A DNA stretch of 64,000 nt from an uncultured Alphaproteobacteria bacterium (GCA_905233975.1 CAJOGD010000001.1:86263-150262), one strand, 5' to 3'; numbered from the stretch's first letter, positions 3,208-56,891 are shown. A program made the numbers and translations. Notes: a model not told the origin generated them from the letters alone.

Positions 3208-3302
3208 ATAGTGTTAGTGCAAGTGGTTAGTGTAAGTGCGGGCGCGTTGCGCCCGTTTGTGTTCCCGACCCACTAACCACTAATCACTAACACTTACACT
3301 AA
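3208..3302. repeat. MITE-like palindromic repeat, copy R1. Arms built from AGTGTTAGTG / CACTAACACT units around a GC hairpin CGGGCGCGTTGCGCCCG.
   Basis: Left arm tagtgttagtgcaagtggttagtgtaagtg (3208-3238) is the reverse complement of right arm cactaaccactaatcactaacacttacact (3271-3300). Same family recurs at 4768, 22507, 51768 and 62321. Confidence 0.8.
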
Positions 3303-13416: not shown

Positions 13417-14121
13417 ATGATTGAATTAATCGGTGCAATTTTGGGGACATCTATGTTCTATGGATTGGTTTGCTGGATTTTTCGGGTCAAGCATTCCAAA
13501 AGATTCATCATGGCGGGAATTATTACTTGGTTGCTGTGTGCGACCATATACGGTCTAACAAACATGGAACATTTTTATATCCGATTCTTGACAGGGTTGT
13601 TTATGTACCTGATTGGCGCCGCCGTATGGACGGGACTTGCGATTTACTTTGATAAAACCAACAAGAATATCAAATGGATTTTGCGGTATATCCCAATTAC
13701 TACGTTGATAATCGCCGTTGCCCTGCCCTTTTTGCTTTTTATAATTTACAAGGCATATAACGAAGAAAAACTATCCAGGGTCCATGATGAAGTCGCACTT
13801 ATTTCCACTGGTGCACATATGCTTATGGGCGAATATTCTGATTATTCGGCATTGAATAACGATTGGCTTTTCAGGGCTATGGACATGTCGAACAAAAATC
13901 CATACAACGGGGTTTATATGGTTGAACCATACGCGGGGAATCCGGAATACTTTATCGTTTCAATCACAAACGTTCCGTCCGCCGATTGCAAGAAACTGAT
14001 TGAACACAAATGGACGGGTTCCGCGCTATACGAATTGGACAGCACGCAATACACCGGCGCAGTGGCGATACCCGCGGATTGTTCCGGCAAATATAACATT
14101 GTCCAAATAATGTTTGATTAA
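13417..14121 (+). CDS. integral membrane protein (about 5 N-terminal TM helices plus a soluble C-domain), unknown function
   Basis: Hydrophobic N-terminal 130 aa. Start lies 21 nt after the deaminase stop. Confidence 0.5.
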   Translation: MIELIGAILGTSMFYGLVCWIFRVKHSKRFIMAGIITWLLCATIYGLTNMEHFYIRFLTGLFMYLIGAAVWTGLAIYFDKTNKNIKWILRYIPITTLIIAVALPFLLFIIYKAYNEEKLSRVHDEVALISTGAHMLMGEYSDYSALNNDWLFRAMDMSNKNPYNGVYMVEPYAGNPEYFIVSITNVPSADCKKLIEHKWTGSALYELDSTQYTGAVAIPADCSGKYNIVQIMFD

Positions 14122-22508: not shown

Positions 22509-22606
22509 TGGCTAGTGGTTAGTGAATGAATTCTGTAATAATCGCGTAATTACAAACTAATTCCAGATATTACTAACCACTAACACTAATCACTAACACT
22601 TCCCAC
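22507..22606. repeat. MITE-like palindromic repeat, copy R3
   Basis: Arms agtggctagtggttagtgaatg and ctaaccactaacactaatcactaacacttcccact. Interior cgtaattacaaactaattccaga is shared with copy R4. Starts at the stop codon of the preceding gene. Confidence 0.8.
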
Positions 22607-23311: not shown

Positions 23312-25099
23312 ATGCGAATGATTGATTCTTGTTTTTTGTGTCTTGATATTGGGACGTGCGGTGTTCGTGGTGTTGCGCATCGCGTTCGAAACGCGGTAAT
23401 TGATAAATCCGCATATTATGCCATTGACGATTTTGACACTGTGTTTGCATTAAAATCTGTGGCGGACGAACTTGAAAAACAAATTGGAACGCATTTTGAT
23501 ACTGCATACATAACCGGAAATTTCGGAAACGCTTTTTTCAGTATATCTGCCAAGGAAACGAAATGGTCAACCGAACACAAAATTACAAACTCTGATATAC
23601 GGACGCAAATCGCACAAATTGATGCACCTGATGATTTTTATCCAATGCATATAATACCATTGCGATACGATTCCACAAAAATCCGTAATATGTTAACCCC
23701 CATTGGCCAGGCGGACACCGCACTTGTATCTACTTTTGCTGGGATATTTTTTGAAAACGAACGCATGCAAAAAATCCTTAGTCTTTTGCGCCAATCACAT
23801 ATTCAGCCTTCGGCATTTTACGCACCGCAATTTCTTTACGGAAATGTTCTACGAAAAAAGAAAACAATCGTAATGTTTATTGATTTTGGGGCCGAACACA
23901 CAACCGCATCCATTTGGACCGATCGTGGCCCGGTTTGGTATTCTGCAAATTTTGCCGGCGGCAACGATTTGACCGAAGAAATATCAACCAGACTTGATAT
24001 ATCTTTTTCCGAAGCCGAACGCATAAAGCGCAACACCGCCGATTTATATTCAAACGAAATGGCGCGTTTTAGCCCCGCGGACAGCGCATACGCTTTTTCT
24101 TGCGCCGACGTAAATGAAATTGTTGTTCCGTTTATATACAATCTTGTTGAACAAATCCAAACGGCTTCGGCCAAATATGTTGAAAAATATGCACCTTGCG
24201 AAATCGTATTGACCGGCGGCGGCGCACAATTAAAAGGCATCGTCGAATTATTATCTGGACGCTTTAATATTCAAATAACACAAACCGGCCCCGACACAAA
24301 TGTTCGCGCACTGGCCAAATATATATGGGATTCTGTCCGTCCGTACCGCAGTGCATATATTGCAAGATTAAAACGTTGGCAAAAAATCACGAATAAAATC
24401 TTTGGAATATTCCACCATCGCAAACAACCCAAGAAACAAAAAACATTTATCCCAATTATGCCAAGCACACTTTGCTTTGACATGGCCCGGCCGGAAACAT
24501 ACACCATGTTTCGTTCAGGCGGCATATCAATTATACACGTCGATATTATGGACGGGCTTTACGTTGACAAGATTACCGGTGGCATTACGGAACTGCGCAA
24601 CATACGCGCCGCATGGCCCGGACATTTGCATGTTCATCTGATGACGGACGCACCCGCAACATGGGCAACCGACGCCATAAACGCGGGCGCGGATACGGTA
24701 ATACTTTCAACAAACACCGTCGGATTGCGTCGCGCCGTCCAAATTGTCCGCACATCGGGCAAACGTGTCGGAATCGCACTTAATCCCGAATCTTCGGTAT
24801 CTTTATTAAAAACGATTCTGCGCGACATTGATGAAATTATGGTGATGGGTGTCGCGCCCGGTGCGGCGGGTCAAAAATTCAATATGAATGTGCTAAATAA
24901 AATATCCATACTTGCCAAAGCACGCAAAAAATACGGACTTAAATTTATAATTTCCGTAGATGGTGGAATAAACCCCGAAACCGCAAGACTTTGTTGGGGC
25001 GCCGGCGCCGATTTGTTGGTCAGTGGTTCATACCTTGCGCACGCCGCCGATTTTCCAATCGCTGTGATGTCATTGTTGCCATCGGCAACCGGTATTTAA
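23312..25099 (+). CDS. FtsA (actin-like cell-division ATPase) fused in frame to ribulose-phosphate 3-epimerase (Rpe)
   Basis: Residues 1-375 carry FtsA motifs LDIGT, MFIDFGAEHTTASIW, ANFAGGNDLTEEIS and VLTGGGAQLKG, then an amphipathic helix. Residues ~380-595 carry Rpe motifs (HVDIMDG and a TIM-barrel pattern). Single ORF with no intervening stop. Confidence 0.7.
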   Translation: MRMIDSCFLCLDIGTCGVRGVAHRVRNAVIDKSAYYAIDDFDTVFALKSVADELEKQIGTHFDTAYITGNFGNAFFSISAKETKWSTEHKITNSDIRTQIAQIDAPDDFYPMHIIPLRYDSTKIRNMLTPIGQADTALVSTFAGIFFENERMQKILSLLRQSHIQPSAFYAPQFLYGNVLRKKKTIVMFIDFGAEHTTASIWTDRGPVWYSANFAGGNDLTEEISTRLDISFSEAERIKRNTADLYSNEMARFSPADSAYAFSCADVNEIVVPFIYNLVEQIQTASAKYVEKYAPCEIVLTGGGAQLKGIVELLSGRFNIQITQTGPDTNVRALAKYIWDSVRPYRSAYIARLKRWQKITNKIFGIFHHRKQPKKQKTFIPIMPSTLCFDMARPETYTMFRSGGISIIHVDIMDGLYVDKITGGITELRNIRAAWPGHLHVHLMTDAPATWATDAINAGADTVILSTNTVGLRRAVQIVRTSGKRVGIALNPESSVSLLKTILRDIDEIMVMGVAPGAAGQKFNMNVLNKISILAKARKKYGLKFIISVDGGINPETARLCWGAGADLLVSGSYLAHAADFPIAVMSLLPSATGI

Positions 25100-42468: not shown

Positions 42469-44913
<2,445 letters not shown>

Positions 44914-44957: not shown

Positions 44958-45212
44958 ATGGCAGAAATATACACAAAAGATGATTATTTAACCCCAACGG
45001 AATATGCAAAAAGATATAATGTCCCTGTGGCTAATGTCATAGCCGCCGTCGAAAGGGCGCGACGCAATCATGCCTCTATATCTCGGGAACGTGGTGGTGG
45101 CAAACAAGAAATTATCATAACCAACAAAGGCCGTTATCGTATTCGTCCAGAAGAAGCGGCGCACACAACACTAAATACAATCATTGAACAAATGAAAGGA
45201 CATCAACAATGA
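44958..45212 (+). CDS. small putative DNA-binding protein (84 aa, HTH-like LTPTEYAKRYNVPVANVIAAVERA)
   Basis: Lies divergent from gyrB and is translationally coupled to the next ORF by an ATGA overlap. Confidence 0.45.
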   Translation: MAEIYTKDDYLTPTEYAKRYNVPVANVIAAVERARRNHASISRERGGGKQEIIITNKGRYRIRPEEAAHTTLNTIIEQMKGHQQ

Positions 45213-45781
45213 AATTCAAATTATTATATTTTGGCGAAATCTTGATTAATCCAAAAAAACGCGCCCAGCATATATCTGATATACGTATGCAGTTTCACCC
45301 GCAATTAAAAAAATTACTTGAACACCAACCATGGAATAACCTGACCCAATACATGGGACCGAATGCCCAGAAAAGTCCGATTATAACCCGCCATGTCGGT
45401 GGCATAGATTGGAATCCGATTATCACACCGAAACTAAAACTGATTGCGGAATTGGATATTCAAATGCTGCACCCGGAAATTATCGGTGTTCCGCGTTCGG
45501 ATATCGACAACCGTATGAAGACATTGTTCGACGGCCTGCGTTGTCCGCAAAACGAACACGAAATCGGCCAAAATGTCCCACGCGACATCGGCCCGATTTA
45601 TACACTGCTGGACGACGACCATTTGATTACCAAGGTGTCCGTTAACACAAGCCACTTGCTATCAACCCACATGTTCGATCCCGAACTTGTGGTGTCCAGT
45701 CCGGATTGCGTTTTCCTGATGATAGACGTGAACCTGCGTGTTGCCGAAGGCACATTGGAAAACCTGCCCTTTATGGTGTGA
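45209..45781 (+). CDS. hypothetical protein (190 aa), partner of the 84-aa protein
   Basis: Soluble protein with no recognised motif. Its 4-nt overlap with the upstream ORF indicates an operon. Confidence 0.45.
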   Translation: MKFKLLYFGEILINPKKRAQHISDIRMQFHPQLKKLLEHQPWNNLTQYMGPNAQKSPIITRHVGGIDWNPIITPKLKLIAELDIQMLHPEIIGVPRSDIDNRMKTLFDGLRCPQNEHEIGQNVPRDIGPIYTLLDDDHLITKVSVNTSHLLSTHMFDPELVVSSPDCVFLMIDVNLRVAEGTLENLPFMV

Positions 45782-45904
45782 TGATATCATTACGCTTCTG
45801 AAACAAATTTGGAATTAAAAAACAATTTTTCGTCATTGCGGTTTGCGAACTGAATCTGCAGTGACGATTACTGTTTATGAAAAATTTACCAAGACAATAA
45901 AACT

Positions 45905-46033
45905 TTATTTTTTGCCTTTCATCGCTTCCGCGGACAGCATGCTAACCAATCCGACGAATTCTTCGGGCGATATTTTATAGTCCGGATTTTTTGCAAAAAA
46001 CTCTAAAACAGCGGTATATAACGGTTTTTCCAT
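45905..46033 (-). CDS. small protein (42 aa) MEKPLYTAVLEFFAKNPDYKISPEEFVGLVSMLSAEAMKGKK
   Basis: Hand-translated ORF with GGAG 5 nt upstream of the ATG. It is the last gene of the minus-strand pil-like operon. Confidence 0.35.
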   Translation of the reverse strand: MEKPLYTAVLEFFAKNPDYKISPEEFVGLVSMLSAEAMKGKK

Positions 46034-46101
46034 AGGAATCTCCTCTATGCATTCCAGTTATACAAGAAACGCACAGAAAAATCAAGATGATTAAACATTC
46101 A

Positions 46102-47004
46102 TTATTTACCGCGACACAATCCTAACTGTTTACGAAGTCGATCGTTTTCGTCAAAAAGTTCCCCACACACATCCAACAAATCTTCATATGTTACAACCGT
46201 TGGTTCCGGTACGCGTCGCATTGCTTGTCTTTCTTTTTTCTCTGCGATTTCTTTCTGTCTGGCTTCTTCTAACCTTTGGTTCGTCTTGGCCAATAACCCC
46301 GCCGTATATTCGACCATATCCACCGGTCTTCCATTGGAATCATGATACTGCTGAGAAGATATAAAGCTATTCCTGTGGTTCAACATTTTGTCATATAAAG
46401 ATTGCAATTCGCCAACCGAAAGACGTATATCCGGCATGCCCGCTATTCTTGCATAGCAAATGAATTTTTCTTGAAATTTTGTATTATCTGCAATCTTAAA
46501 CAATAATCTTTTCTTTTTATATCCATCTGTTATACGCAAACGACCATCACTGGTCCCATACAAAAATTGCTGACAAACCCTGGCAAAATGCGTTTCATGT
46601 CCACTACGTTCAATCTGTGGAAACTTTTTCCATTCACTTAATAAATAGAATAATTTTCTCTGGCCAACCCTATCATTCGGATTATTCAATATCATTAATA
46701 TATGACGCATATCTTCGACAGCATCTGTATTACCGATGGTAATGTTATGTTCATTAACCCGAGTCTTGCCCATCAACAACGCCGTCAATATGTCATAAGA
46801 CACTTTCCCTTTGTCCAAATGCGTTATATTTTTATAAAGTTCGTCCGCAATGTTCACTTTTTTTTCACTAATATACAAATTATAAATATCCGTTGTTCCA
46901 AGATTTTTTATAAACCATTCAAACGCCATTGGGGGAATTCCCAACGCAAATGTCAACAGGTCATATAATATGGGCTTTGGATTTTTGAATTCATAACGTT
47001 CCAT
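46102..47004 (-). CDS. hypothetical protein (300 aa), AT-rich, downstream member of the pil-like operon
   Basis: No TM segment and no recognised motif. Lies 45 nt downstream of the platform gene on the same strand. Confidence 0.5.
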   Translation of the reverse strand: MERYEFKNPKPILYDLLTFALGIPPMAFEWFIKNLGTTDIYNLYISEKKVNIADELYKNITHLDKGKVSYDILTALLMGKTRVNEHNITIGNTDAVEDMRHILMILNNPNDRVGQRKLFYLLSEWKKFPQIERSGHETHFARVCQQFLYGTSDGRLRITDGYKKKRLLFKIADNTKFQEKFICYARIAGMPDIRLSVGELQSLYDKMLNHRNSFISSQQYHDSNGRPVDMVEYTAGLLAKTNQRLEEARQKEIAEKKERQAMRRVPEPTVVTYEDLLDVCGELFDENDRLRKQLGLCRGK

Positions 47005-47049
47005 GATAAAACTCCATTTGTCGTATTTGATTATATCATATTTTTTTAA

Positions 47050-48120
47050 CTATGACAAGAACGCGGTGATTTGATCTTGCATTTGAAACGTGCCCAAAAC
47101 GACCCACGCAATCACGCCCGATATTAACAATATGCCAACCGTATTTAACGCGTCCGACACAGATTCAATTCTCCTTACCGAATCTTCCAAATATTCATTT
47201 GAAATATGCGACAGGTTTTCATCAAAATCATTCATATCTGAATACACCGACAAATCGCCAATCAATTCTTGGTTTGGAAAATCCATTCCTGTATTTTGCA
47301 ATGCGTTCCCAAGGTTATCGCCGTTCGCAATATGTCGTAATGTTCGATCCAAAATATCACGCAAATATTTATTCGCATTGTCCGCAATAACACGCATCGC
47401 GTCCGGAATCGAAACGCCCGCAGAAACCATTGCGGCCAACGACATCATCCAACCAACCGACACACGAATTTTATAAATACTCCATGGTGGTAATTTATCA
47501 AAGGTCGCACGCAAACGCCCCGACCACACCGGCAAAGAAAGCCATATCAAACCTATGACAACAACCAACACAAACGCCATAAATTTCCAATACTTTCCAA
47601 CCCAACTTGACAACCATATCAATGACGACGCCCCACCCGTCCAAACCATATTATCGCCCGCAATTTCGGCCAACGGCGGAACCAGGTAAATACCAACCAT
47701 CACAATTATACCCAACACCAACACAAACAATAATAACGGATATGCAATCGCACTGAACACCGCGCGACTAATTCTTTTTGTTGCGACAACAATACGACCA
47801 ACATTTTCAAGCGCGACAATCAAACTTGACATATTACTTGACGTCAGCAGCAATGTTTCTTCGGTTGGAATCCACCCACGTGTGGCCTCGGCAAAACTTA
47901 AACCTTTTTCCAAATTTTTTTCCCATTCGCGCATGCATATTGCAAACGGTTCGTTCGGTTTTGCACCACCATGCGATTCCGTCATTTGAAGTCTGTTTAA
48001 CGCATTCACCAAAGTGAAATCGTTTTTAAGCAATGATACCAACTTGCGCCAAATTGCAATACGCTTGTCCGTACTAAATCGACAGACCATTTTTGCATAA
48101 AATATTTCAACACTTGTCAT
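47050..48120 (-). CDS. type II secretion / type IV pilus inner-membrane platform protein (GspF/PilC/PilR-like)
   Basis: 356 aa. A cytoplasmic N-domain is followed by 3 TM segments with a duplicated-domain pattern. Sits 2 nt after the ATPase gene. Confidence 0.65.
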   Translation of the reverse strand: MTSVEIFYAKMVCRFSTDKRIAIWRKLVSLLKNDFTLVNALNRLQMTESHGGAKPNEPFAICMREWEKNLEKGLSFAEATRGWIPTEETLLLTSSNMSSLIVALENVGRIVVATKRISRAVFSAIAYPLLLFVLVLGIIVMVGIYLVPPLAEIAGDNMVWTGGASSLIWLSSWVGKYWKFMAFVLVVVIGLIWLSLPVWSGRLRATFDKLPPWSIYKIRVSVGWMMSLAAMVSAGVSIPDAMRVIADNANKYLRDILDRTLRHIANGDNLGNALQNTGMDFPNQELIGDLSVYSDMNDFDENLSHISNEYLEDSVRRIESVSDALNTVGILLISGVIAWVVLGTFQMQDQITAFLS

Positions 48121-48122
48121 TT

Positions 48123-49745
48123 TTAATAAACCCCTGGCCTATCCAATAACCCGACCCAGCGTTCCAATTCATCAACACCAATGATACCTTGCAACATCAA
48201 CGAACACGCCGCTTCTTTTAGTGTGCGACCGTCCATTTCTTCCAACCAATACTTTACCGCCGCATCTGTATCCCCGGCGAGTGCAAGTTTCAAAAAATCA
48301 CTGTTTGTTATAATTATTTCGCCGGCCTTGATACGTCCCATTGTTCCCGTTCCATTACAATGTTCACAACCCTTGCCACGAACATAAACCTGATTTAAAC
48401 CCAAATCACCAAACGCATCTTTGACACGACCATATTCCGCATATTCCGTATGATTAATCAGCCGTTCCCGACAATGCGGACAAAGACGTTTAAACAAACG
48501 CATGGAAACAAGTCCGCGCATCATCGTTTCTTCTTTTAACTTAAACGCTTCGACCCCCATATCAAGCAATCGCACCAACGCCGCCATCGCAGAATTCGCA
48601 TGCAACGTCGTCCAAACATTATGCCCCGACAACGCACCTTTGACCGTAAGTTGCGCGGCGGCCAGTGTTCGAATTTCCCCGACCATCAATGTGTCGGGGT
48701 CACTGCGTAATGCGGCGGCCAACGCTTCGGTGTATTCGTTTTCACGTTGTTCTTCGTTGGCGGTATTTATAACCGGAATTTGATGTGCACCAAAAATTTT
48801 CTGTTCCACCGGATCTTCAACCGTAATAAGGTTTATTTCATAATGATGTTCTTTTAACATCAAAACCATATTACGAACAAGTGTTGTTGATTTACCGGAA
48901 CTTGTCGGTCCCGCAACCACAACCAATCCCGTCGGGAAAGAACGCAGCCGATGCAATAATTTTTGTTCGTATTTTCCAAATTCTTGTTCGGTTGTAATGC
49001 TTTCAGACGGATTATCATACAACAATCGCATAACAACATACCGCGAACCGAACGCAACCGGATTAAATTGCATACGAATACTTAACACACCTTGGGGCAA
49101 ATACAAATCCTTGGTCCCGCGCAACGGTGTTCGCCCATCTTTTTGTGCCGATTGATATTCGTTTTGCGCATAGTTTGAATTAGAAATATCGGCGGACGCA
49201 AACGCGGCACGAACAAAAGATTCGCCCCACCCCGAATTAAATTCCAACACCGGTTGCATACTGCCATCTATACGAAAATAAATTGTTGTTTGGTCTGCAA
49301 CCTCTATATGAATATCAGAAACCTTTTGTGCGGCGGCCTTGGCCACAATATCGATAAAATCTTTTTGCATTTGGTTGTTGTAATCAACGCGCGCACGCGC
49401 ACCACCAACCTTGTTTTCTTGATGTTTGTATATCGCTGATAACAACCCCAGGTCCGAATAAAACGGCGCCAATATTTTACGATTTTTCTTTTGCAACAAA
49501 TCTAAAAACGCAAGGACACGACCATCATATCGATGTGTCCGCGATATAACAATTCCGCCACCCGAAAAATACGCCAATAACCCCTGGGTTTCCTTGGGCA
49601 GTTCAAATTCAGAACCGTTTGCCGTCAAAAGCCTGTTGTTTTCAGAAAAAAGATATTCAATTATATCGTTCGTATCGGACCGTTCCATTCCAATTGGTAC
49701 GGTCGGCCGTTTATCAAAAACGATATTTCCTGAAACATCTTTCAT
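48123..49745 (-). CDS. type II/IV secretion system assembly ATPase (GspE/PilB/PilQ(R64)-like)
   Basis: Walker A GPTSSGKST, Asp box, His box, and a tetracysteine CPHC..CEHC zinc motif. 540 aa. Confidence 0.8.
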   Translation of the reverse strand: MKDVSGNIVFDKRPTVPIGMERSDTNDIIEYLFSENNRLLTANGSEFELPKETQGLLAYFSGGGIVISRTHRYDGRVLAFLDLLQKKNRKILAPFYSDLGLLSAIYKHQENKVGGARARVDYNNQMQKDFIDIVAKAAAQKVSDIHIEVADQTTIYFRIDGSMQPVLEFNSGWGESFVRAAFASADISNSNYAQNEYQSAQKDGRTPLRGTKDLYLPQGVLSIRMQFNPVAFGSRYVVMRLLYDNPSESITTEQEFGKYEQKLLHRLRSFPTGLVVVAGPTSSGKSTTLVRNMVLMLKEHHYEINLITVEDPVEQKIFGAHQIPVINTANEEQRENEYTEALAAALRSDPDTLMVGEIRTLAAAQLTVKGALSGHNVWTTLHANSAMAALVRLLDMGVEAFKLKEETMMRGLVSMRLFKRLCPHCRERLINHTEYAEYGRVKDAFGDLGLNQVYVRGKGCEHCNGTGTMGRIKAGEIIITNSDFLKLALAGDTDAAVKYWLEEMDGRTLKEAACSLMLQGIIGVDELERWVGLLDRPGVY

Positions 49746-49748
49746 TTC

Positions 49749-50441
49749 TTAATTACCATTCGCAACATTTAATGTTTGTATTTCACCATCTTTGGAAAAC
49801 ACCACACCTTCGTCCAACGATATAGATTTGACCGTATATCCATCAAGTTCTTTGCCAACACTCAATTTTTTATTTTGTCCGTTGGCCAAATCTTGAACGG
49901 TTGCCTGTAATTGCGCGCCGGCACCAAACACATTAATAAGTTTGTATCTTTTTTCTATTTCTTGGGGCAAACTTGGTTGTTCCGGGGCCGCATAAACCGG
50001 CTGCGCGGGCGCATATGTTGCCGCCGGCGCCGGATTCGCCGTTTTATTAGATAACGCTTCGCGTTCGTTTTCCAAACGTTTTGCTTCGTTTTGCAAACGT
50101 GCACGTTCGGTTTCAAATTCTTGCTGTTGTTGTTCGGCACGTCCCGATAAAGTATCGATTTCCATATGCAACTTTATTTTTTCCGCGGCCAATCTATCCA
50201 AATCAAGATTTAATTGCGCGCGTTCCTTTTCCAACTGCATAAGGACTTTTTCTTGTTCCAAATCAGTAATTTGTTGAAACAGCGAACCATTAACATCGTA
50301 ATCTTCGACCGCATTTGCCGAAAAATCTTCATTCGCCGCAAATTCATCGACCCGGACATCTATCACAGAATCGACCGCATAAGACGCAGATGTTATTCCA
50401 AAAACAAAAGCGCACAACAAAAGTTTTATTTTATTTTGCAT
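49749..50441 (-). CDS. secreted coiled-coil protein with a C-terminal beta domain (PilP/GspC-like periplasmic component)
   Basis: Signal peptide MQNKIKLLLCAFVFGITSASYA, a long Gln/Glu/Arg-rich coiled-coil, and a C-terminal ~80 aa domain (KRYKLINVFGAG..). Overlaps the upstream gene by 11 nt. Confidence 0.45.
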   Translation of the reverse strand: MQNKIKLLLCAFVFGITSASYAVDSVIDVRVDEFAANEDFSANAVEDYDVNGSLFQQITDLEQEKVLMQLEKERAQLNLDLDRLAAEKIKLHMEIDTLSGRAEQQQQEFETERARLQNEAKRLENEREALSNKTANPAPAATYAPAQPVYAAPEQPSLPQEIEKRYKLINVFGAGAQLQATVQDLANGQNKKLSVGKELDGYTVKSISLDEGVVFSKDGEIQTLNVANGN

Positions 50442-51693
50442 AGATTATCACCTCATAGTTCCACATTTTTCTGGTGGCATTCCACGACACCTTGGTCATA
50501 TACACACCACCAAAATCTTCGAATATCGTCATGAATTGTTCCGGTATCAGTTTTGATTCCGCGGACACACCGACGAAAAGCACATCTTTTGAATCCCGAC
50601 CATTTGACACAACATCAACCATTGACACAACTTCTGCGTCCATGTTTATAGATTGAAAGCGACTTGTTAATTCACGCACCATCGTTTCAGTATCGCGTTC
50701 ATCATACGATTGCGATAATACGCGTTCCGGCAATTTTGCACGAACGATTACTTCGTTGTCATTCACTTCTTGGACAAACACCCCTGGCATCACATCGCCG
50801 GCTATGTTGTAAAAATCATCTAATGTTCCAAAAGACCGCTTAAACGTTGCCGTCACATGCGATTTACCACATTCAACCACAGTTTGGTTCCAACCCGCGA
50901 TTTGTTGCATCAAAAACCCAATCGCACGATAGCACAAATCCGCACGTTCTTCCGGATTTGGCAAAGAATCATACGGCATAACTATTGGTTGATATTCCGG
51001 TTCTTGCCTTATCTCAAATTCTTTATCTAATTCTTTTTCTTTCTCTTCTATCTGTCTTTTATATTCAGCCGCCAATTCAGGATTTATCTTTGCCATTTGT
51101 GGTTTCGGCGCAAAAACTTGATTTATCGGTTCACGAAAGAAATATAAAACAACGAACACAAACGCGGCGAACAAAACCGTTGACATTATACTTCTTGCGA
51201 ACAAACTTATCGGGTGCAAAACCGAATGCACACGCCCAGAAAGCAATTCCATTAAATTACGTTCAACCGCACGCGGCATTCCCCAATCCGCCGGTGCAAA
51301 CGAAGCATTCCAATCAGGAATTTCGTTCAATTCGGCATATTTTTCGCGCGCACTGTCTTCGTCATCAAATAACAAATCGTGCAAAATGACACCGTTTCGC
51401 ACCGCAACAAGAACGTATTTATTATCAACCCTAAATGCGCCCAACATCGAAGAATATCCCGGCAGCGCATTAATAATTTCAATCGCAATAGATGGCATTC
51501 CGGAACGATGCCCCTTGGCCCGCGCACCCAAACCAACCATTTCATTATATCGTATATAAAGGTTCAAATGTTTGTCTATGCCGTTTGCCAATTTTTGTGC
51601 ATACGCGCGCGTCGTAAAGCCAGACACCATCGGTTGCCATATCAATTCCGATGCATATTTTTTTCTTTTAATATGAACATATTGACCCGACAA
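50431..51693 (-). CDS. bitopic inner-membrane assembly protein (PilO(R64)/BfpC/GspL-like topology)
   Basis: 420 aa: a ~165 aa cytoplasmic domain, a single TM (SIMSTVLFAAFVFVVLYFF), and a ~235 aa periplasmic domain. First gene of the operon. Confidence 0.5.
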   Translation of the reverse strand: MSGQYVHIKRKKYASELIWQPMVSGFTTRAYAQKLANGIDKHLNLYIRYNEMVGLGARAKGHRSGMPSIAIEIINALPGYSSMLGAFRVDNKYVLVAVRNGVILHDLLFDDEDSAREKYAELNEIPDWNASFAPADWGMPRAVERNLMELLSGRVHSVLHPISLFARSIMSTVLFAAFVFVVLYFFREPINQVFAPKPQMAKINPELAAEYKRQIEEKEKELDKEFEIRQEPEYQPIVMPYDSLPNPEERADLCYRAIGFLMQQIAGWNQTVVECGKSHVTATFKRSFGTLDDFYNIAGDVMPGVFVQEVNDNEVIVRAKLPERVLSQSYDERDTETMVRELTSRFQSINMDAEVVSMVDVVSNGRDSKDVLFVGVSAESKLIPEQFMTIFEDFGGVYMTKVSWNATRKMWNYEVIIYAK

Positions 51694-51767
51694 AATCTCT
51701 CTCCGAAATACTCCTGTGTGGATTATAACACAAAACGAACATTTAATTCCAGTGTAAATTATTAAAT

Positions 51768-51873
51768 AGTGTTAGTGTAAGTGATTAGTGGTTAGTCGTT
51801 TCTGGAACAAATCCGTAATTACGAATAATTCCAGACACTACTAACCACTAACACTAATCGCTTACACTAATCG
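51768..51873. repeat. MITE-like palindromic repeat, copy R4
   Basis: Arms agtgttagtgtaagtgattagtggttagt and ctactaaccactaacactaatcgcttacactaatcg. Interior cgtaattacgaataattccaga is shared with R3. Confidence 0.8.
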
Positions 51874-52286
51874 CAATTTCCGTTAAACGATGCGGCACAT
51901 GGTTTAATATCATAATCCGGCATAGGCCTATCGGCACGCGCGGTCTTTACGGCATGTATATTCGGACATTCATAAACATTTGCCGCCAAAACGAATGCGC
52001 GTTCCGGTCCAAACACAACCCATTCATTTGGTTTGGTCCGTTGGCTAACAATCCAATATGCGTTTCCTGGGCGCGCCTGGTCGGCAATACGATTTTCCAA
52101 ATAGCGTCTTGCGTCATCGACATCATAAACAGAAACCTCGGATTCTATTTTATACAAAAACACGCAACCGATTGGTTCACCATCAAGTTGTTTTATATAC
52201 TCACTGCCGTTTTCGTTTTTGATATAGCCACTGCACCCAGCAAGCGCACCAAGGCATAAAAGCAACAAAGCAAATTTTTTCATCAT
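51867..52286 (-). CDS. small lipoprotein (139 aa)
   Basis: MMKKFALLLLCLGALAGCSG lipobox. Confidence 0.5.
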   Translation of the reverse strand: MMKKFALLLLCLGALAGCSGYIKNENGSEYIKQLDGEPIGCVFLYKIESEVSVYDVDDARRYLENRIADQARPGNAYWIVSQRTKPNEWVVFGPERAFVLAANVYECPNIHAVKTARADRPMPDYDIKPCAASFNGNCD

Positions 52287-52301: not shown

Positions 52302-53243
52302 TCACGCGTCTATTATATCATAATTATCCGGATTGCTAAACAGTTTTTTAAGCAGTGCATTATTCAACGCATGACTGCCCTTGTACGATTCTAAACTGCC
52401 GATAATAAAGCCACCGGACGTGAACATGTCGCCAAGTGCATCAACAATTTTATGCCGCACAAATTCGTCCGGCCACAAAATTCTATTTAACACACCATCA
52501 CCGGCATAGTTCAAAACAATAACATTTTTTTCATCTGCGCCGCGCGCCATACCATGTGCCTTAAGGTAATTCCATTCAGAATATTTTCCAAACGTCCGCG
52601 CGGCGGAAATGTTCCGCAGGAAATTTTGCCTTGACCATTTTGTATCATCAAAGGAATACACAAAACTCTGTTTTCCTATTATCGGTTCGCGATACACCAA
52701 TGTCGCCTTGATATTCAGCGCCCCATCATACGACGGCGATAACTTTACAAAACCATCAGACCGCCGCCCGTATAAAAAATTCGAAAGATATACATTCATG
52801 CGCGTCCAAAACGGCAATTTGCGTAAAACCTCACGCGCGGTAACGGTAATTTCTTTTTTCACAACGATTTTTTTACCCACACCATTTGTCACACCAACCG
52901 TTATAAGACCTTTATAAAAATTAACCGCACTGCCCTCTAAAATCGGCACTTCGGCACTATCAACATCAATCAGCGCACTATCAACCCCCGCGACAAAAAG
53001 CGCCGCCATCAAATGTTCAATTGTTTTAACATGCGCACCATTTAAATTGCCAATGGTCGTATTCCGCATTGTTGTATCCGAAACATTATCATATGTCGCC
53101 GGAATTGGTTCTTTATCGTCCAAATCGATACGACGAAAGAAAATCCCCGGCCGATCAAACGGTCGTATAATCATATTTACCGGCAATCCCGAATGAATAC
53201 CAACTCCGGAAAATTCAACATTATCTTTAACGGTTCTCATCAA
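52302..53243 (-). CDS. lpxC: UDP-3-O-acyl-N-acetylglucosamine deacetylase
   Basis: 313 aa with N-terminus TVKDNVEFSGVGIHSGLPVNMIIRP and overall LpxC length and pattern. Confidence 0.85.
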   Translation of the reverse strand: MMRTVKDNVEFSGVGIHSGLPVNMIIRPFDRPGIFFRRIDLDDKEPIPATYDNVSDTTMRNTTIGNLNGAHVKTIEHLMAALFVAGVDSALIDVDSAEVPILEGSAVNFYKGLITVGVTNGVGKKIVVKKEITVTAREVLRKLPFWTRMNVYLSNFLYGRRSDGFVKLSPSYDGALNIKATLVYREPIIGKQSFVYSFDDTKWSRQNFLRNISAARTFGKYSEWNYLKAHGMARGADEKNVIVLNYAGDGVLNRILWPDEFVRHKIVDALGDMFTSGGFIIGSLESYKGSHALNNALLKKLFSNPDNYDIIDA

Positions 53244-55011: not shown

Positions 55012-55045
55012 CTTGACAATGTGTTATTTTGTATTATATTATAAC
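55012..55045 (+). promoter_or_regulatory. sigma70-like promoter (TTGACA-16-TATATT) for the large hypothetical gene
   Basis: cTTGACAatgtgttattttgtatTATATTat, with an AAAGGA SD before the ATG at 55068. Confidence 0.4.
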
Positions 55046-55067
55046 CAACAATAAAAGGATGTTGAAA

Positions 55068-56891
55068 ATGGATTTGAAAGAAATAGAACGAATGCTTGGA
55101 CTTCCGAACAAACCACAGCCTAGCCCGGTTGGGGTACCGCTCGTTGCACTGCCATATCTGGCTTTGGACGGATTAAAACTTGCAATCTTGGCCTGTTTAG
55201 AACCAACAACCGCATACAAAAAAGCCAAAACATACGAACAAAAGTTGGAAGAATTAGGCAAAATCTTACAAACACTGGCAAGTTCAAATATTGAAGACTC
55301 TTTGGCCAAAGGTTCCGAAGCGCAAATCCATGTAAATTTTGCTAAAAATGCCTCCGAAGAAATATGCACGCTAATACAAGAGGCAATAAATAAAGCAACG
55401 GGGCTGAATGACAAAAAATTGTTCACTTTTAAGGTTTTTAACACCCCAAACAGTCGCAAAGAAACGGCGGTATTTCAATCCCCAAAAGAAAACCTTCGGA
55501 CAACCATCGGCACCATGTTAGAGCGTTATTCGGGACGTTATTTCAAATTTTCCGGCGATTTAAATGCAGAAGACATTGTTTTCAAAAACACCGACAATTC
55601 TTGGATTTCAAACCTTACCGTAACCGGCACTTTTAAATGTGACAAGCATAATAAAATATTCCCCGCCAAGGTTGGAACTCTTGATTGCTATAATCTTCGC
55701 AAAAATTATATAACACCCGATACACAACTCCCCGAAGCAAAAGTCATCAATTGCGCATACAGCGTAACCGGTTTTGATGTACTTATGGATATATTACCCA
55801 GTGGATTAAGACACTTAATCGTTGAACCGGGCATGATACGACTTGAACCCAATCCGCAAAACCCGGATGCCCCAATCCGGAAACTGCGTTTAGCAACAGC
55901 ACGAGAATTCAGAAAGAAATATCCACGATTAAAGATTACTGACACAAACGGTAAAAATCTATCAGATATATTGAAAAGACTCGATAACGAAGGCAATCTT
56001 AAACCAATAAAAAAACCAAAAACGGCGCCAAAACCGCGCACCACACCAACAAACACATTGCCCAACCAAATAATAGGCCAACATTTGTCGGTCCCGGATT
56101 TAATAATGTTTTGTCGTACAATTCCGGACAAATACGGCAAAGATAAATTTCCAGAAAATAACGACCTAAAAGATCCGATTACAAGAGCTTTGTTGTCTGG
56201 CAAACTCAAAACAAAAAAATTCGTGATTGCCAGGGATGGCCATACAAAAATTCAGGTTATTGACATATCCGAATTTGAACTTTTCACAACTATCCTGGAT
56301 CAGGTAATTGTCGAAGACGAAAAGGCAAAAGCGATGAAACAGGTGGCGAAACAAACCGTCCACGTTGTCATGCCACAGAAACAACAAACCGTTCAACCGA
56401 CAAAAACCAACGAACAAAATCAAACAAAAATTGTAAAATATATACAACCAAGCGTATTCGACGAAATTGTGTCTGACGTAAATTACAAGTTTGCTATGCA
56501 AGTTTTGCACGATATTGAATCCGTAAACACCGACCCATCAGACCCCACAATAAAGAACAACACTTCTTTAAACTCAACCGCCCCAACCAAGATAACAAAA
56601 GCCGGCGGATGCTATATCAAACAAACCAACGGAAAAGAAAAAACCATTATATGGATTGTCGCACAGGACGAAAACGGGAACAAAATATTTGTGTGCCAAG
56701 GATTCTTTAAAAAGAACACTCGCCCAAAAAAATTTATACTTCAACAAGGTTCTCGAAAGTTGCAGACGTTCACAAAAGAAGAGTTAAACGACTATATTTC
56801 TGTCTCAAGTTTGATTGAGTTTGATAAGGCTCCAAAACCTGGACCTTTAATACAACAACATTTCGGAAGAAACCTGTACCAAAAATCATAA
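55068..56891 (+). CDS. large hypothetical protein (~607 aa) with a Lys/Pro-rich linker (KPIKKPKTAPKPRTTPTNTLP); candidate secreted effector
   Basis: Start set at MDLKEIERML behind the SD. No TM segment or signal peptide. No recognised domain. Confidence 0.55.
   Translation: MDLKEIERMLGLPNKPQPSPVGVPLVALPYLALDGLKLAILACLEPTTAYKKAKTYEQKLEELGKILQTLASSNIEDSLAKGSEAQIHVNFAKNASEEICTLIQEAINKATGLNDKKLFTFKVFNTPNSRKETAVFQSPKENLRTTIGTMLERYSGRYFKFSGDLNAEDIVFKNTDNSWISNLTVTGTFKCDKHNKIFPAKVGTLDCYNLRKNYITPDTQLPEAKVINCAYSVTGFDVLMDILPSGLRHLIVEPGMIRLEPNPQNPDAPIRKLRLATAREFRKKYPRLKITDTNGKNLSDILKRLDNEGNLKPIKKPKTAPKPRTTPTNTLPNQIIGQHLSVPDLIMFCRTIPDKYGKDKFPENNDLKDPITRALLSGKLKTKKFVIARDGHTKIQVIDISEFELFTTILDQVIVEDEKAKAMKQVAKQTVHVVMPQKQQTVQPTKTNEQNQTKIVKYIQPSVFDEIVSDVNYKFAMQVLHDIESVNTDPSDPTIKNNTSLNSTAPTKITKAGGCYIKQTNGKEKTIIWIVAQDENGNKIFVCQGFFKKNTRPKKFILQQGSRKLQTFTKEELNDYISVSSLIEFDKAPKPGPLIQQHFGRNLYQKS

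Follow-up and report, generated by a model that had tools for sequence, protein, structure and literature searches.

We analysed a 64,000-nucleotide (nt) stretch of DNA from an uncultured Alphaproteobacteria bacterium (GCA_905233975.1 CAJOGD010000001.1:86263-150262), called the window in the following, with positions 45905-51873 as the region of interest. With a probability of roughly 0.75, four minus-strand genes of this region make up an operon for the inner-membrane assembly of a PilO2/R64-type type IVb pilus, one that is encoded on the chromosome and passed on vertically in an alphaproteobacterium akin to Candidatus Enterousia. The system as a whole is probably a dispersed type IVb pilus, rather than a stripped-down machine or a mobile element in decay. 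The four genes of the operon are:

50431-51693, minus strand: pilO, a PilO2-type bitopic assembly protein of 420 amino acids (aa) with a TTG start, a cytoplasmic actin-like domain, one transmembrane (TM) segment and a periplasmic ferredoxin-like domain
49749-50441, minus strand: pilP, 230 aa, with a signal peptide, a near-invariant coiled coil, a variable linker and a conserved C-terminal beta domain
48123-49745, minus strand: pilQ, a PilQ-type assembly ATPase of the GspE/PilB superfamily, 540 aa (Pfam T2SSE, E = 3.8e-66)
47050-48120, minus strand: pilR, a PilR-type polytopic platform protein of the GspF/PilC family, 356 aa, with two T2SSF stretches (Pfam, E = 1.9e-22)

Calling of open reading frames (ORFs) returned six minus-strand ORFs within 45905-51693, at exactly the coordinates given by a first-pass annotation made from the sequence before. 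The packing it described was also recovered: pilO and pilP overlap by 11 nt, followed by gaps of 3 nt and 2 nt. All window proteins were searched against Pfam and NCBIfam with curated cut-offs, and proteins without a family also against PHROGs and PADLOC. The 420-aa protein is bitopic as described, with a single TM segment at residues 161-191, and matches PAP_PilO (PF06864) with 37.3 bits at a cut-off of 26.7. Its best matches in both sequence and structure are PilO2 proteins, ahead of BfpC and GspL. For the 230-aa protein the expected signal peptide and coiled coil are both present, and residues 110-211 match the NCBIfam family TIGR03021 (pilP_fam) with 41.4 bits at a cut-off of 34.65. The coiled coil and the C-terminal domain of PilP are invariant in an alignment of 18 orthologues; a profile search against the PDB gave no match. 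The translation of the 540-aa ATPase contains the Walker A sequence GPTSSGKST and the tetracysteine motif CPHC...CEHC, in agreement with the GspE/PilB assignment, and its top NCBIfam families are GspE and PilB, both scoring under the equivalog cut-offs. Identity of the ATPase across the clade is 76-94%. The two T2SSF stretches bear out the GspF-type platform, for which hydropathy indicates four hydrophobic stretches.

The likeness to the PilO-PilP-PilQ-PilR order of the type IVb family is borne out by these family matches and by a comparison with plasmids. On a Bosea and a Salmonella plasmid, tblastn located PilO2 genes that form part of canonical clusters with the order TcpQ-family protein, secretin, PilO2, PilP, ATPase, platform, second ATPase and pilins. 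The window proteins are collinear with both clusters, with 29-36% identity for ATPase and platform. Compared with Bosea, PilO is 26% identical over 293 aa (E = 3e-17), the ATPase 35% over 534 aa and the platform, which has the same length, 36% over 343 aa. Judged by sequence and gene order, the four ORFs are real homologues of PilO2, PilP, PilQ (ATPase) and PilR (platform) of the R64/PilO2-type type IVb pilus.

Two other machines were considered for these proteins and rejected. Ownership of the genes by a canonical type II secretion system with true gspL and gspM, as allowed for in the first-pass annotation, did not hold: the bitopic protein is closer to PilO2 and BfpC than to GspL, and ATPase and platform score far under the cut-offs for the GspE and GspF equivalogs. 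A Tad/Flp or Com pilus does not fit the 540-aa ATPase with its N-terminal domain and zinc motif, for which matches to TadA and ComGA are much weaker than those to GspE and PilB. In addition, the pilin found in the clade (see below) is PilS-like and not of the Flp type.

The distribution of the operon was assessed in a scan of species-representative genomes with the PilO alignment, which found relatives in 215 genomes. The best 80 of the 215 are metagenome-assembled genomes (MAGs) that come from rumen and faeces and bear the label Candidatus Enterousia or Alphaproteobacteria, and an identical ATPase was found on gut and rumen metagenome contigs. In a profile search of 1.84 billion cluster representatives the in-group scored 528-281 bits, after which scores fell to 191 bits or less. 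For synteny the window proteins were compared by tblastn with 85 loci; single loci are named below by their L numbers. In most species the order is DUF374, lpxK, lpxC, a gene for a 139-aa lipoprotein, pilO-pilP-pilQ-pilR, a variable slot, a gene for a 190-aa protein on the opposite strand, and gyrB. The core genes that had been reported on either side of the module were located in the window with Pfam and NCBIfam, gyrB at 42469-44907 and lpxC at 52302-53243, with lpxK on the lpxC side. In L039, L075 and L085 the pil block is found without its lpxC and gyrB neighbors, in L039 among dnaA, fba, tolB and uvrC (Pfam), which identifies the four genes as the unit.

In 81-84 loci, representing about 80 species, none of the four ORFs is truncated except by contig ends. 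Lengths vary little (PilP 217-247 aa, PilQ 540-546 aa, PilR 356-359 aa, full-length PilO 420-422 aa), and the few PilO ORFs below this size (minimum 177 aa) run into a contig end. The ratio of nonsynonymous to synonymous substitution rates (dN/dS) is 0.12-0.15 for pilO, 0.09-0.17 for pilP, 0.055-0.07 for pilQ and 0.065-0.11 for pilR, compared with 0.10-0.15 for lpxC and 0.08-0.14 for lpxK. Values of gyrB for the mid and far groups were left out, being an artefact of ORF-start choice. The pil block is a conserved core operon, vertically inherited and under purifying selection.

Neither Secretin nor Peptidase_A24 nor a cleavable prepilin is encoded in the 64-kb window and 10 kb past each end. 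The missing parts were sought by tblastn in 1.68 Mb of Enterousia loci, starting from the proteins of outgroups. Among the outgroups the alphaproteobacterial MAG L093 has a full chromosomal cluster, consisting of TcpQ, secretin, PilO2, PilP, ATPase, platform, a 179-aa protein, three PilS/bundlin pilins and a PilT-like ATPase. In L092 the order is TcpQ-secretin-PilO-PilP-ATPase-platform. The cluster of L093 adjoins VirB4/TrbC and that of the outgroup L094 adjoins VirD4. In the Enterousia loci a secretin was found at L048:3-839, with 39% identity to the L092 secretin (E = 1e-53), and a prepilin at L039:20005-20481, with the cleavage site ESG↓RSMIEMLGVLAIMG and at a distance of 5.4 kb from pilR. 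Since the mature end of the clade prepilin reads RSMIE, the prepilin motif scan was relaxed so as not to demand hydrophobic residues at +1 to +4; the rescan returned the L039 prepilin and no other. Altogether, a canonical prepilin is present in the clade loci L039, L097, L100 and L163.

A scan with the secretin alignment found relatives on 297 metagenome stretches, of which the best 80 are 82-98% identical, and complete secretin ORFs (532-555 aa) are intact in 68 out of 68 cases. They belong to a second conserved locus with the order sufBC, a 344-aa TcpQ-domain protein, a 542-aa secretin, rpsT, plsY, a 284-aa protein, dprA and dnaA. Farther along this locus parE, dnaJ, pgsA, uvrC, a solitary 154-aa prepilin and a pseudouridine synthase follow. 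Both TcpQ (PF10671) and Secretin (PF00263) score above the Pfam cut-offs, and the best family of the clade secretin is TIGR02520, the PilN type IVB secretin (E = 7.5e-71). In nearly all clade loci (L102-L174), dprA follows three genes after the secretin.

The separate loci are linked on single contigs. L048 and L161 carry the secretin locus together with the lpxC-pilO locus, L161 in the form of TcpQ-secretin and lpxC-pilOPQ, and in L039 prepilin and pil operon share one contig. According to PilO distance, L161 lies outside the group of the window, L048 and L039. As L161 has a secretin, the common ancestor of the window lineage and L048 had one as well. When genes shared by the window and the secretin loci were sought, overlap was found only with L161. 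From this bracketing and from the selection acting on the operon we infer that the window's own genome carries secretin, TcpQ and prepilin. In outgroup Alphaproteobacteria the whole cluster is found at a single site, which marks the Enterousia system as a dispersed type IVb pilus.

The following gene of the window is related to the prepilin:

13417-14121, plus strand: pilin-domain paralogue of 234 aa with a PilS-like globular domain, a possible accessory protein

Over its C-terminal 136 aa it shares 33% identity with the Enterousia prepilin (pairwise E = 9e-26), and against all four clade prepilins tblastn gives E values of 1e-16 to 5e-20; the Pfam match to PilS is weak (E = 0.008). Three extra N-terminal TM helices precede an alpha1-like TM helix and the globular domain, in which the Cys pair is kept. 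At the aligned positions both Gly(-1) and Glu5 are missing, so that by the usual rules the protein can be neither cleaved nor polymerised. Sister strains have an intact copy that differs by a 4-aa indel following the last TM helix. The protein may be an accessory to the machine, anchored and PilM-like. The statement that pilin, secretin and peptidase are lacking around the operon thus stands for cleavable or canonical forms within the window and 10 kb on each side, but it had missed this pilin-domain protein.

In the mechanism that we propose, a single ancestral cluster of TcpQ, secretin, PilO, PilP, ATPase, platform, pilins and PilT would have been dispersed in this clade, so that TcpQ and the PilN-type secretin now lie beside rpsT-plsY-dprA-dnaA and a single PilS-like prepilin lies beside uvrC. 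Going by their families, PilQ would be the hexameric extension ATPase and PilR the membrane platform. PilO would act as a GspL/BfpC-like bitopic protein whose cytoplasmic actin-like domain anchors the ATPase at the membrane, and PilP as a periplasmic connector with its conserved C-terminal domain reaching towards the secretin. PilQ hexamers, tethered to the membrane through PilR and the cytoplasmic domain of PilO, would lift processed PilS-type subunits from the inner membrane into the filament. PilP and the periplasmic domain of PilO would provide the link to the filament's exit, the PilN secretin with its helper TcpQ. We infer that this organism assembles such a pilus. By analogy with type IVb pili elsewhere and with regard to the proposed partner-dependent lifestyle (PMC12306168), the filament would most likely serve in attachment to a partner cell or a host surface.

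Genes of two further systems lie just outside the window. The gene for the ComEC competence channel is found just beyond the window start (L086 18798-20729), and the type IV secretion genes VirB3 and VirB4 (L088 6062-8778) are located about 650-3400 bases past the window end. The pilus may cooperate with the VirB-type genes or with DNA uptake through ComEC and DprA.

Several findings weigh against the dispersed pilus. Secretin, TcpQ and prepilin are found neither in the window nor in any locus of the closest subclade, and the clade members that do bear secretin or prepilin have a PilO that is only 45-55% identical to that of the window. In the about 2.6 Mb of clade loci no prepilin peptidase (A24), retraction or PilT-like ATPase, PilV-type adhesin or lytic transglycosylase was found; near the three loci there is no PilV- or PilT-like gene, the PilT query matching the assembly ATPase only. 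Part of these findings would fit a stripped-down machine as suggested in the first-pass annotation, in which the four proteins do without canonical pilin, secretin and peptidase and, with the help of other partners such as the paralogue at 13417-14121, serve a periplasmic or inner-membrane function. The absence of secretin, cleavable prepilin and peptidase from the window with 10 kb on each side and from the loci of the closest subclade, the lack of a secretin beside pilO in the two nearest outgroups, L091 and L094, and the non-cleavable pilin-like protein all speak for it. However, the sequence surveyed amounts to just about 9% of the genome, whose size is about 0.9 Mb, and more distant clade members on both sides of the lineage carry TcpQ, the PilN-type secretin and the PilS-like prepilin, at other core loci that are contig-linked to the pil operon. 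Moreover, the C-terminal domain of PilP docks to the secretin in related systems, and its strong conservation is expected where the partner is retained. We consider a stripped-down machine very unlikely. The same annotation had also raised the possibility of a decaying remnant of a pil cluster from a plasmid or an integrative and conjugative element (ICE). R64-type pil clusters are usually borne by plasmids or ICEs (PMC3984277), and the cluster is partial here, with a palindromic repeat and a variable slot as flanks. Against this stand the full-length ORFs in 81-84 loci, dN/dS values of 0.05-0.17 and a position among core genes that is fixed in about 80 species. No mobility genes lie alongside, and neither an integrase nor a relaxase nor a tRNA-linked boundary was found beside the operon. 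The guanine-cytosine (GC) content, one of the checks proposed in the annotation, is similar to that of the flanks. Intact ORFs, low dN/dS, core-gene synteny and matching GC content together effectively rule out a decaying mobile-element remnant, which we regard as extremely improbable.

The same machine could also have another main job, either export of soluble proteins or DNA uptake for nucleotide scavenging that feeds ComEC and DprA. Type IVb systems secrete proteins, as in the export of TcpF by the toxin-coregulated pilus (TCP) and of CofJ by CFA/III. The positions of ComEC and dprA given above would suit uptake, as would the lack of many biosynthetic pathways in the clade. No candidate gene for a secreted substrate is linked to the operon, though, the adjacency of dprA may be mere conserved synteny near dnaA, and no PilO2-type type IVb pilus is known to us as an established DNA-uptake system. 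Such a main role is conceivable but rather doubtful. A more far-reaching proposal, which we put forward as a speculation of low probability, is that a domesticated type IVb pilus of conjugative-element ancestry and the nearby VirB-type genes could form one contact apparatus, in which the pilus would grip the partner cell, the secretion system would move material and the 234-aa paralogue would be a lineage-specific basal part. If true, this apparatus would be a mating-pair-stabilisation device re-used for episymbiosis. Of all these readings we prefer the dispersed type IVb pilus with a role in attachment.

The features next to the operon are:

51696-51730, minus strand: putative promoter and ribosome binding site of the pil operon, with extended -10 TGTTATAAT (51730-51722) and GGAGAGAG (51703-51696) upstream of the TTG start codon at 51693
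51775-51875, no strand assigned: palindromic dispersed repeat of about 100 nt, resembling repetitive extragenic palindromes or miniature inverted-repeat transposable elements (REP/MITE-like), between the lipoprotein gene and pilO
51867-52286, minus strand: lipoprotein of 139 aa between lpxC and pilO
45209-45781, plus strand: cytoplasmic protein of 190 aa between the pil operon and gyrB
46102-47004, minus strand: orphan helical protein of 300 aa in the variable slot downstream of pilR, outside the pil system
45905-46033, minus strand: gene for a hydrophilic peptide of 42 aa, present in the closer subclade only, outside the core system

The stretch with promoter and ribosome binding site upstream of pilO is kept in close relatives. 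A scan for consensus promoters omits the site, which has no match to a -35 element. The pil operon probably has its own promoter and ribosome binding site, as judged from this stretch. The repeat forms a near-perfect hairpin of about 100 nt (RNA fold: free energy -48.3 kcal/mol, z = -7.9), and partial copies are located at 22545-22591 and 3208-3301 of the window. Across strains, copies occupy differing intergenic sites. The first-pass annotation had the module capped by a MITE copy. The hairpin and its partial copies agree with this, but as a part of the module the element drops out: it is likely a transcriptional insulator or terminator and no part of the machine.

The 139-aa lipoprotein has a variable Cys-rich tail and 52-84% identity across the clade, above that of PilO. 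It has no family in PHROGs or PADLOC, and a profile search of the PDB gave no match to a solved structure. We considered it as a remnant of the secretin or TcpQ and rejected this, as its likeness to TcpQ, secretin and PilV is no more than expected by chance. In L039 the lipoprotein gene is not beside the operon, and in the nearest outgroup an unrelated gene takes its place. When the pil operon moves, the gene keeps with lpxC, and hairpin and promoter part it from pilO. The lipoprotein is probably not a part of the pilus. On the other side of the operon, the 190-aa protein shows 90% mean column identity, a dN/dS of about 0.03 and a 155-member cluster at 90%. It has no significant match in Pfam, NCBIfam, PHROGs or PADLOC and no sequence match in the PDB. 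The stretch D-x-D-I-D-N-R-x-K-x-L-x-D-G-L in this protein presumably recalls RusA-type resolvases. PADLOC also returned no match for an 84-aa protein.

Between pilR and the 190-aa gene the slot ranges from about 30 nt to 3.4 kb across the loci. The 300-aa protein has no match in Pfam, NCBIfam, PHROGs or PADLOC. In tblastn against the 85 loci its gene is confined to the closest strains and two other species (40-44% identity), apart from a weak, partial match of 27% in L028, and among 5.8 billion proteins three homologue clusters were found. The gene has a strong promoter-like site of its own and a lower GC content. A structure model with a mean predicted local distance difference score (pLDDT) of 76 gave no informative structural neighbor. 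For the 42-aa peptide, the same four databases returned no match, and the peptide contains neither a TM segment nor a prepilin motif. Its gene is found in about 20 of the 85 loci by tblastn, with an intact ORF rebuilt in 17, and is missing where pilR is followed by the next gene after 30-40 nt. Sister strains whose ATPase is identical to that of the window carry a HigB-like toxin and a helix-turn-helix (HigA) antitoxin pair between the 42-aa and 190-aa genes (L001 13911-14580, L003 11114-11783), at the equivalent of about 45790-45900 in the window. The slot is an insertion hot spot with the 300-aa and 42-aa genes as its cargo. The two genes had been counted with the module, from which we exclude them because they are missing from most relatives and located in the variable slot.

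Elsewhere in the window, a 595-aa protein (23312-25099, plus strand) matches FtsA/PilM_2 and ribulose-phosphate 3-epimerase and is an apparent FtsA-Rpe fusion. A protein of 620 aa (55029-56891, plus strand) has no family, PADLOC included. Between close relatives it is only 28-31% identical, whereas adjacent genes reach 76-93%, so that it evolves very fast. The 284-aa signal-peptide protein encoded between plsY and dprA at the secretin locus evolves similarly fast (33-66% identity).

Candidatus Enterousia is a widespread, uncultured lineage of gut and rumen, and the organism is non-flagellated. For the order Rs-D84, to which Candidatus Enterousia belongs, genomes of about 0.75-1.0 Mb have been described, with no tricarboxylic acid cycle, no respiratory chain and few transporters, and dependence on a partner has been proposed (PMC12306168). 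In the same study type IV pili were reported for a different lineage only, not for Rs-D84 (PMC12306168). That so small a genome retains a type IVb pilus machine, and does so under strong purifying selection, makes this machine a candidate organelle for attachment or uptake. As molecular machinery the system is ordinary; its interest is ecological, as a candidate contact organelle for Enterousia. The genes pilOPQR, tcpQ-pilN and the uvrC-linked pilin can serve as markers in metatranscriptomes and imaging. A more general lesson is that a cluster that appears partial can be merely dispersed.

We compared the system with the thin pilus of R64 and its relatives PAPI-1 and Burkholderia Tfp7, using as reference the part list PilL/TcpQ, PilM, PilN, PilO2, PilP2, PilQ2, PilR2, PilS2, PilT2, PilU2 and PilV2. 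In common with these systems it has PilO2, PilP, a GspE-family ATPase and a GspF-family platform in the order O-P-Q-R, and its clade relatives have a TcpQ-domain protein followed by a PilN-type secretin as well as a PilS/bundlin-like prepilin. Identity to the plasmid type IVb systems is only 21-36%. Unlike the three reference systems, Enterousia has its parts spread over at least three core loci, and the single solitary prepilin with Arg at +1 sets it apart from the R64 family. No PilV adhesin or shufflon and no PilU peptidase, PilT or PilM was found in the clade sequence searched. PilV and PilT parts vary among members of the R64-variant family, and PAPI-1 and Burkholderia Tfp7 also lack a dedicated prepilin peptidase. 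Unlike R64 and PAPI-1 the Enterousia system belongs to the chromosome of a reduced genome and is handed down vertically, whereas R64-type systems usually reside on plasmids or ICEs. As Burkholderia Tfp7 is also chromosomal, such carriage is typical of the family but not defining.

The bundle-forming pilus (BfpC/BfpD/BfpE) differs in that the bitopic protein studied here is nearest to PilO2. Type II secretion (GspL/GspE/GspF/GspM) differs by its GspC, GspG-K and GspM genes, which are not found here, and the clade secretin is of the PilN type with a TcpQ partner. The closest full systems found are the chromosomal type IVb clusters of L092 and L093 (GCA_028706255). In contrast to these clusters, the secretin pair and the pilin of Enterousia have been relocated, and a PilT-like gene was not encountered. 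The ATPase of L093 is 53% identical to its best Enterousia match, L081, and the platform of L093 is 41% identical to that of L007. Finally, the pilin cleavage site SG↓RSM(I/V)EML is common to Enterousia and the clusters of the L092/L093 type.

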